Assembly: GCF_003018115.1 (NCBI RefSeq)
Contig: NZ_CP027457.1
DNA: 64,000 nucleotides
Direction: 5' to 3' (one strand)
From: Escherichia coli
Lineage (GTDB): Bacteria; Pseudomonadota; Gammaproteobacteria; Enterobacterales; Enterobacteriaceae
Below are positions 58,297 to 59,671 of this stretch, piece by piece. A model generated the notes under the pieces. It was not told the DNA's origin. It saw only the letters and a list, made by a program, of their open reading frames with translations, and made no database searches. How positions within the stretch are numbered: the first letter of the stretch is position 1; each line of letters starts with the position of its first letter. The position numbers and the translations under genes were made by a program.

Positions 58297-59671
58297 GTCG
58301 GTAGGTGTTGGTTTTTTATCTAGAATTATATCTGTATTATCTAATATTATAATCATTCCTATTATATTAAAGCATTTAACGCCAGAGCAATTTTCGTTAT
58401 GGATGTTATTTGTTTCATTTTATAGTTTGGTTATAATATTTGATTTTGGATTTAGTGCTACAATTAGTAGATATGTTAGTTATGTTTTAAGTGGTGCGAC
58501 CTTACAGCAATTACAAAATGGTTTTTATGAAAATGTTTGGCTAGAGAATGGGGGGGGTATTGATTATAAAGCCCTGAATGAATTAAGTAGAATAAATAAA
58601 ATTATTTTTTATTATCTTATCTTAATTGCTTCAGTTTTTCTACTTTGTATATATTTATATTATTGCAACTTTGTCGGAATCAATATTTCTAAGGATGATA
58701 GAATTGCATGGGGACTTTTTTCTATATCGATATTGATTCAGTTGGCGAGTATTAGATATAACGGATTCTTACACGGTTCAGGTAATGTTGCAAAAATTTA
58801 TAGAAATACAATATGCTCGAATTTTGTATTTCTGTTGTTTTTCATTTTTTTTATTTACTTGCAGTGGTCATTAGTTGGTATTTGTATTGCTAGACTTCTT
58901 TCATCGTTGATGATATTTATTTTAAATGCCATATCTTCATCCAAACTGACTTGCGAGTATCCGAGACTAAGATGCAATGAAGTTAAGGGCCATGATAATA
59001 AACGTTTGTTTAAACGGATTCGAGATAAGTCTTTTCATCTTGGTATAGGTGGTTTGGGAAACTTTATATGTAATCGTATGACAATTATGGTTATGACGGC
59101 AACAGTCGCAATTCAAAATATTGCAGGTGTTTCCTTCATCATCAATTTGAGTATTACTATTCTTTCAATTTCATTGATACTGATTAATAATGCAATGCCT
59201 GAACTGGTTCGTTTTCGTGTCGAGGGGGCGTATGATAAACTCTTTAATTCCTTCAAACGAATATGTTTCATAAGCATTGTTTTTTTTATATCCTCATATG
59301 TCGTAATGGTTATAAGCACACCGTATATTATTAAAATCACACATTCTAAAGTAATTCTTCCTTCTAACTCGATTGTACTGTTGTGTTTCTGCATTTTTTT
59401 TATAGAGTTGATCCAGAGTTTATCCATATCATTTATTTCGACAAGTAATAACACTGATTTTGCTAAATACCAAATTATAACAGGACTTTCATTTTTGTTA
59501 ATATGCTTCGTTTTCAGTTATTTTAAATGGACTTCATTAGTTAATATTTTACTTGTACAATTAATAGTTCAGTGTATATACAATGGCTGGAAATGGCCAT
59601 TTGTGATCCTTTGTGAATATAATAAAGTTAGACACCTTATTAGGAAAAAAAATGATGTTGCTGCTAAGTAG
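58289..59671 (+). CDS. wzx: Putative O-antigen flippase Wzx
   Basis: 460 aa polytopic membrane protein with a Wzx-like N-terminus (SRIISVLSNIIIIPIILKHLTPEQFSLW). Confidence 0.65.
   Translation: MFKSVGVGFLSRIISVLSNIIIIPIILKHLTPEQFSLWMLFVSFYSLVIIFDFGFSATISRYVSYVLSGATLQQLQNGFYENVWLENGGGIDYKALNELSRINKIIFYYLILIASVFLLCIYLYYCNFVGINISKDDRIAWGLFSISILIQLASIRYNGFLHGSGNVAKIYRNTICSNFVFLLFFIFFIYLQWSLVGICIARLLSSLMIFILNAISSSKLTCEYPRLRCNEVKGHDNKRLFKRIRDKSFHLGIGGLGNFICNRMTIMVMTATVAIQNIAGVSFIINLSITILSISLILINNAMPELVRFRVEGAYDKLFNSFKRICFISIVFFISSYVVMVISTPYIIKITHSKVILPSNSIVLLCFCIFFIELIQSLSISFISTSNNTDFAKYQIITGLSFLLICFVFSYFKWTSLVNILLVQLIVQCIYNGWKWPFVILCEYNKVRHLIRKKNDVAAK

Follow-up and report, generated by a model that had tools for sequence, protein, structure and literature searches.

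The wzx gene and its G8 tract

The stretch of DNA analysed here (the window; 64,000 nucleotides of contig NZ_CP027457.1, Escherichia coli chromosome) carries a run of eight guanines (G8) inside wzx, the predicted flippase gene of an O-antigen cluster. In the window, the colanic-acid cluster (gmd to wcaM) is followed by galF, by the O-antigen cluster with a GC content of 30% at approximately 54.3–63.4 kb, and by gnd. The two features of primary interest are as follows:

58289–59671, + strand: wzx, O20/O137-family O-antigen (O-unit) flippase; intact open reading frame (ORF) of 460 residues with an ATG start
58550–58557, + strand: G8 homopolymer; the sequence reads ggggggggta at 58550–58559

The tract begins at nucleotide 262 of the ORF, which is the first position of a codon, and is therefore in frame. 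Together with T58558 it forms the codons GGG GGG GGT, which encode Gly88, Gly89 and Gly90 of Wzx in the context ...ENGGGIDYK.... An earlier note on this DNA had described eight in-frame G residues at this position of the flippase ORF, encoding the GGG of ENGGGIDYK, and its coordinates and reading agree exactly with ours.

The same cluster was identified in five RefSeq complete genomes at 99.3–99.8% DNA identity, where wzy and wzx are annotated as the “O20/O137 family” polymerase and flippase, the wzx ORF under the full name “O20/O137 family O-antigen flippase”. A 99.8% identical RefSeq protein carries this name as well. Wzx matches NCBIfam NF041503 (WZX_like) over its full length (E = 3.2e-74, 250.5 bits; curated cut-off 300 bits). 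A Pfam scan of the protein returned no family at E ≤ 0.01, and PF01943 was not detected. The AlphaFold (AF2) model is all-helical, with a predicted local distance difference test score (pLDDT) of 80 and a predicted template-modelling score of 0.76, and hydropathy analysis identified multiple transmembrane (TM) segments; model and hydropathy together correspond to the polytopic α-helical fold of about 12 TM helices that is expected of MOP-type proteins. Foldseek comparison of the model with the PDB returned a MATE transporter (6fhz, E = 1.2e-5), WzxE (9g9p, E = 1.7e-5) and MurJ (7waw, TM-score 0.67). The predicted fold is thus common to Wzx, WzxE (9g9p) and MurJ (6nc6, 7waw), with E-values of 1e-5 to 1e-4 and TM-scores of 0.53–0.67, whereas sequence identity to these proteins is 11–14%. 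The genomic context expected of a flippase is likewise present, as wzx lies inside the galF–gnd cluster with a JUMPstart element upstream. Because of the NCBIfam match, the RefSeq relatives and the fold, and with Pfam silent, we assign the 460-residue ORF as a MOP-type O-unit flippase, predicted to translocate O-units linked to undecaprenyl diphosphate (Und-PP). The gene and the exact protein, which is present on 98 public contigs, are already catalogued.

Across the whole window, runs of at least seven G are not enriched (eight overlapping matches versus 4.8 expected). For the O-antigen cluster (9.1 kb, 18.4% G), the expected number of runs of at least eight G is 0.010 when positions are treated as independent and identically distributed, or 0.040 under a first-order Markov model. 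Two such runs are present, the second in the neighbouring gene wzy, and the probability of finding two or more is 5e-5 to 8e-4. The spectrum of G runs in the cluster comprises six G5, no G6, no G7 and two G8. GGG accounts for 32 of 160 glycine codons, and a Gly-Gly-Gly sequence would be encoded as GGG-GGG-GGN with a probability of approximately 0.04 by local codon usage. The paired G8 runs are a genuine, non-random oddity of this 30%-GC cluster.

Several structural roles for the tract were considered and rejected. A G-C hairpin is excluded since the cluster contains no C run of five or more, and a canonical G-quadruplex since the single G8 has no neighbouring G tracts. The tracts in wzy and wzx are not copies of one repeated element, as their flanks share AT-richness alone. 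An Rfam search of positions 53000–64000 identified the JUMPstart element as its sole match and none at the G8 tract.

In the protein, hydropathy places residues 56–104 between TM2 and TM3. In the AF2 model, residues 85–88 have a pLDDT below 50 and lie between helices 83–86 and 93–129. Homologues at 22–58% identity have KNH, KGN, DEK or similar residues at the site of Gly88–90, within a gap-rich alignment block, and the alignment rejects a conserved Gly-Gly-Gly motif. On either side of the tract, the homologues at 58% identity (from the syntenic galF–gnd cluster of L014/L015) and those from Vibrionaceae at 38–42% align well. No run of six or more G was found in wzy or wzx of the syntenic L014 cluster. 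Based on the homologue alignment, the hydropathy and the low pLDDT, we conclude that Gly88–90 arose recently in this lineage, within a loop that varies, and does not constitute a conserved motif. As a separate observation, the L014 homologue of wzx (8001–9368, 58% identity) carries, by coincidence, an A9 run (ATA AAA AAA AAT) at the homologous loop position, and the TM2–TM3 loop therefore holds a homopolymer in both diverged clusters, made of different bases (G8 versus A9).

Tract length across public records

The tract was read in 18 independent records; besides the window, these are five chromosomes from RefSeq, nine assemblies (draft or complete) from NCBI and several that Logan built from public runs. 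Eleven of them have G8 and the remaining 7 have GGGGGCGG; the total length is constant across three haplogroups, and length variants were absent from the 18 records. The GGGGGCGG form represents a synonymous change of GGG to GGC in haplogroup C, which includes O20:H12.

Three sampling routes that are unbiased for the integrity of wzx were followed: a DNA search of 5,426 complete genomes, a look-up anchored on the GT25 glycosyltransferase gene of the cluster (25 contigs read) and a look-up anchored on the fragment of a broken wzy. All three yielded the 460-residue wzx, and none found a broken copy. A change of one nucleotide in the tract would truncate the protein, with predicted products of 95 residues for G7 and 91 residues for G9. 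Twenty exact look-ups, which covered frameshift and in-frame products, established that the predicted G5, G6, G7, G9, G10 and G11 products in two allelic backgrounds are absent from approximately 15 billion public proteins, whereas full-length wzx alleles were recovered on 98, 38, 7, 5, 3 and 1 contigs, at least 150 in all. JGI metagenome contigs, searched with a gapped DNA pattern that allowed 4–14 nucleotides between the flanks (9 in the window, approximately G3–G13), returned no copies of the locus.

The sole match to a variant product, a 253-residue C-terminal fragment, was rejected as a tract variant; it derives from a truncated gene copy in CP050207.1 (L020, a 5.76-Mb chromosome). There, positions 2701–5387 hold a fragment of the cluster whose genomic surroundings are unrelated, with an MFS transporter/HATPase gene on one side and an FAA-hydrolase gene on the other. 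The fragment comprises the C-terminal 253 residues of wzx, the GT61 and GT25 genes and 47 residues of the GT4 gene.

The wzx tract therefore has the structure of a contingency locus, a homopolymer of about 7–8 nucleotides or more in which a change of one nucleotide truncates the product. It shows no length polymorphism between strains (0 variants in 18 records), and it is not an uninterrupted repeat conserved wherever the gene occurs, being interrupted in 7 of the 18 records and absent from homologues. The structural resemblance is the only one observed between the tract and such loci. The earlier note had proposed that the tract supports either phase-variable control of the O antigen or a homopolymer error mode shared with wzy. 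At the level of isolates the first proposal is not borne out; the absence of heterogeneity across isolates, the observation which that note had set against its own idea, is what we found for wzx (one length in all 18 records, no variant products). The second is without support at this tract, which keeps the reading frame and has the length that ten other independent assemblies show.

The wzy tract and its surroundings

The partner tract lies upstream in the neighbouring gene of the same cluster, which also contains two elements that may bear on the expression of both genes:

57071–58296, + strand: wzy, O20/O137-family O-antigen polymerase, frameshifted in the window (408 residues in relatives; Pfam PF13425 match)
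57176–57183, + strand: G8 tract of wzy (in-frame length G9)
58289–58296, + strand: 8-nucleotide overlap of the wzy stop and the wzx start (ATGTTTAA), read from the sequence
54278–54316, + strand: JUMPstart element (Rfam RF01707, 56.9 bits) with an ops match (GGCGGTAG at 54305–54312)

In the window, wzy starts at ATG 57071 and meets a premature TAA at 57206–57208, giving a product of 45 residues, and the remainder is open from TTG 57226 to 58296. The in-frame state of the tract is G9, read as GGG GGG GGG (Gly36–38), and was found in 15 of the 18 records and in all three haplogroups. G8 occurs twice (the window and L024) and G11 once (L011), the latter placing wzy in the same wrong frame as the G8 of the window. 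The earlier note had taken wzy and wzx to hold the same sequence; a second G8 is indeed present at 57176–57183, but this describes the window alone, the native tract being G9. Its idea of slippage or error is upheld for wzy by these length variants, and also for yegH (below), but not for the wzx tract.

The window is identical to isolates of the L007 type over 7.4 kb save for the one base in wzy. L024, an NCTC assembly, has the wzy G8 and, over 7.4 kb, another four indels in homopolymers, at window positions 57534, 61529, 62027 and 62299. A further single-base loss was identified in yegH (minus strand, 27892–29540), where a change of C6 to C5 at 29094 splits this TerC-family gene into ORFs of 400 and 150 residues. 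The C5 variant is present in 5 of 5,027 complete E. coli genomes, from unrelated lineages, and is the sole indel that separates the window from strain EC93 across 54 kb. The two indels of the window are alike in that each removes one base from a G/C run and breaks a conserved gene. This fits residual under-calling of homopolymers in the assembly, and it fits genuine slippage mutations as well; the wzy frameshift would be an artefact in the first case and a genuine OFF mutation in the second, with roughly even odds that lean towards an artefact. If the wzy G8 is real, semi-rough lipopolysaccharide (LPS) is expected.

Other copies of the cluster carry independent one-nucleotide indels at or beside homopolymers in GT4, wzy and pssD, with wzx never hit. 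L012 has lost a G in wzy at window position 57228, L008 has lost a G after A10 in the GT4 gene (window 62098), and in L023 an A9 in pssD is reduced to A8 (window 62664). The wzy G9 tract, and not the wzx tract, is the site at which clusters of the O20/O137 type come to be called broken, and its under-calling in long-read assemblies matters for in silico serotyping and for the calling of pseudogenes.

The gene order of the cluster is galF, HAD phosphatase, a 529-residue protein, a 251-residue protein, wzy, wzx, GT61, GT25, GT4, pssD, pssE and gnd, and this low-GC cluster is clearly foreign to E. coli. The JUMPstart/ops element at the head of the operon places wzy and wzx in one long transcription unit of the RfaH type. 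The 8-nucleotide overlap between the two genes suggests translational coupling, in which case premature termination of wzy may lower the synthesis of Wzx through the loss of this coupling.

The first three genes of the cluster (54353–57065) encode the HAD phosphatase, the 529-residue protein with nucleotidyltransferase-like and kinase-like parts, and the 251-residue IspD/MobA-like nucleotidyltransferase. The first of these scores above the cut-off of TIGR01689 (“EcbF-BcbF capsule biosynthesis phosphatase”). According to Liu et al (2019), the genes between galF and gnd do not match the O20 structure in the literature, a Ribf-Gal disaccharide, and a phosphatase of the TIGR01689 family could bear on the incorporation of ribofuranose from a phosphorylated donor.

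Compared with its near-isogenic relative EC93, the window is 99.988% identical over positions 1–16504 and 99.5% identical over 16000–54227, after which the two diverge completely; EC93 carries an O179 cluster at its O-antigen locus. The alignment has the form of a textbook O-antigen replacement by recombination, with its boundary just after galF.

Interpretation and comparison with phase-variable systems

We consider it likely that the G8 of wzx is an ordinary, lineage-specific coding homopolymer, a latent slippage hot spot and not a switch. G·C runs as long as this one are hot spots for indels, the rate of which climbs exponentially with run length (PMC8510543); from this we infer that the wzx tract has a propensity to slip in vivo and that it must do so at some low rate. 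In E. coli K-12 that produces O antigen, deletion of wzxB is lethal, as Und-PP-linked units are trapped and undecaprenyl phosphate is sequestered, whereas deletion of wzyB alone leaves growth unaffected and gives semi-rough LPS (PMC11813082). Loss of the flippase in a cell that makes O-units would by analogy trap undecaprenyl-PP-linked units on the cytoplasmic face and be lethal or strongly deleterious, and for this reason G7 and G9 cells would be purged instead of being retained as an OFF phase. We infer that this purifying selection accounts for the constant length of the wzx tract. Haplogroup C would have shed the slippage liability through its synonymous G-to-C change. The wzy tract, in turn, would be free to vary because its OFF state is viable.

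A control from the same window is provided by dgcE, a core diguanylate cyclase gene, which contains an in-frame G9 (TTG GGG GGG GGT, Leu-Gly-Gly-Gly) at 23218–23226 on the minus strand. This gene stays intact, which indicates that an E. coli gene can contain a long G run without being a switch. The 116-nucleotide query matched 5,411 records, 191 of them at an identity of at least 99% and, among the matches listed, with the same match length; the tract itself was read directly in EC93, which has the G9, and in three divergent records alone. The G9 is lineage-specific as well; three other E. coli genomes that were checked have GGGGGGTGT or GGGGGTGT.

A number of points weigh against this explanation. 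Two runs of at least eight G in adjacent partner genes have a probability below 1e-3 by composition, a coincidence that it leaves unexplained, and the partner tract in wzy does vary in length. The lethality of wzx loss was established for O16 in K-12 (PMC11813082) and not for this cluster, and it could be relieved through cross-flipping by WzxE or through poor expression of the cluster, the latter being conceivable because of the mismatch between the O20 structure and the galF–gnd genes (Liu et al, 2019). Many of the approximately 150 wzx contigs are probably clonal and represent few independent lineages. Cultured isolates cannot gauge slippage within a population, and lethal or deleterious variants are invisible in assemblies. 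Finally, 0 of about 150 for wzx and 2–3 of about 195 for wzy are statistically indistinguishable, and with so few counts a lower intrinsic mutability of wzx relative to wzy cannot be demonstrated.

Among the alternatives, the one that fares best, although unlikely, is that both G runs are by-products of a single mutational history and not of selection, through in-frame slippage of +3 nucleotides that lengthened shorter Gly-coding G runs or through transit of the cluster via a donor rich in poly-G tracts, with the wzx tract a passenger and the wzy tract alone having phenotypic consequences. Each tract encodes Gly-Gly-Gly in a loop that joins two TM helices, neither occurs in the closest diverged syntenic cluster, so that both are recent in this lineage, and the low-GC cluster is foreign to E. 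coli; a similar lineage-specific tract, the G9 of dgcE, arose by two point changes. However, intermediate alleles (G5/G6, Gly2) are not on record, and a donor with such tracts was not found, the nearest homologues from outside E. coli (Vibrionaceae) being without them. This history is also compatible with the static homopolymer and not exclusive of it.

We give little credence to the possibility that the wzx tract is a true contingency locus, in which slippage between G8 and G7 or G9 switches the flippase and the O antigen OFF and ON, jointly with the wzy tract. It is long enough for this role and 5′-proximal, any change of one nucleotide truncates the protein, the pair of G runs is compositionally improbable, and the partner tract is polymorphic. 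There are precedents in wbeL (A8) and manA (A9) of Vibrio cholerae (PMC3441752) and in kpsC of E. coli K96 (A7↔A6; PMC13410964), and 8-bp G·C runs are indel hot spots in mismatch-repair-defective E. coli (PMC8510543). Set against this are the absence of length variants from the 18 records and of variant products from the approximately 15 billion proteins, and the synonymous C that interrupts the tract in 7 of 18 records, so that it is not conserved as a repeat. An OFF state would moreover be expected to be lethal in a cell that produces O-units. E. coli is mismatch-repair proficient, and slippage of a G8 should be orders of magnitude rarer than in the classical poly-G organisms. Equally hard to credit is a two-tract form of poly-G phase variation in mismatch-repair-proficient E. 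coli, according to which the wzy G9 would toggle smooth and semi-rough LPS, the wzx G8 would add another OFF state that is viable under certain conditions (such as low O-unit synthesis or cross-flipping by WzxE), and the compositionally improbable pairing of the tracts would reflect selection for mutability.

That Gly-Gly-Gly is functionally required as a flexible hinge of Wzx, with the homopolymer a side effect, is very improbable. All three haplogroups retain the three residues, even the one that carries the synonymous change, but the motif is conserved in no homologue at 22–58% identity and the region is gap-rich and of low confidence in the model; even if the glycines were required, codon usage predicts an uninterrupted G8 in approximately 4% of cases. 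Almost no weight can be given to a sequencing or assembly artefact at the wzx tract, with an error mode shared with wzy: the window does have two one-nucleotide G/C-run deletions relative to near-identical relatives (wzy G9 to G8, and yegH C6 to C5 in 5 of 5,027 genomes) and the indel-rich L024 assembly also calls wzy G8, but the wzx G8 keeps the frame, has the same length as in ten further independent assemblies (those from Logan among them), and is unaltered even in L024, so that the error mode may touch wzy and yegH but not wzx.

Based on this, the wzx tract is a real, in-frame and compositionally unusual homopolymer that is static across the public copies and most likely no switch, and phase variation is unsupported for wzx. 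The O antigen is a serotyping marker, a phage receptor and a vaccine target; were the tract a switch, slippage could silence this antigen in E. coli, but the evidence points the opposite way. By itself, a long run of G in an E. coli gene does not argue for phase variation. The locus also makes plain why, with the two steps so unequal in lethality, tracts prone to slippage should be tolerated in wzy and selected against in wzx.

The classical poly-G/poly-C contingency loci include lgtA/C/D and pgtA of Neisseria, lipooligosaccharide and capsule genes of Campylobacter jejuni, and the fut genes of Helicobacter pylori. These share with the present locus G or C runs of at least eight nucleotides in glycan genes within AT-rich DNA. 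Unlike the wzx tract, they switch at high frequency, are polymorphic in length among and within strains, and lie in genes for non-essential glycosyltransferases. C. jejuni is not known to possess MutS or MutL.

A literature search on poly-G or homopolymer phase variation of the E. coli O antigen, wzy and wzx returned nothing for this cluster, and the E. coli O-antigen literature that was searched contained no such slippage switch. The closest functional parallels come from surface-polysaccharide genes elsewhere. In V. cholerae O1, wbeL (A8) and manA (A9) contain, like wzx, 5′-proximal homopolymers of 8–9 nucleotides in O-antigen genes, in which a change of one nucleotide truncates the product, and several tracts occur in one pathway, as in the wzy/wzx cluster (Seed et al, 2012; PMC3441752). 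The V. cholerae variants were selected by phage and occur in natural strains (manA in 2 of 37), with reversion demonstrated for manA and not for wbeL, whereas the wzx tract is without variants. The V. cholerae tracts are 100% conserved (PMC3441752), whereas that of wzx is interrupted in 7 of 18 records. The V. cholerae genes act in sugar synthesis and have viable OFF states, in contrast to the flippase step of wzx, the loss of which is lethal in K-12 O16.

The group 3 capsule gene kpsC of E. coli K96 (PMC13410964) offers a coding homopolymer in a surface-polysaccharide gene of the same, mismatch-repair-proficient species, with slipped-strand variants that are rare but present in public genomes. 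Reversibility and phenotype of the A7↔A6 change were demonstrated experimentally for kpsC, and nothing comparable was found for wzx. The 7A-to-6A frameshift was also present in two other strains, and 58 genomes with the K96 locus were surveyed (PMC13410964). Within the O20/O137-type cluster, the G9 tract of wzy is a closer analogue of kpsC than the wzx tract is.
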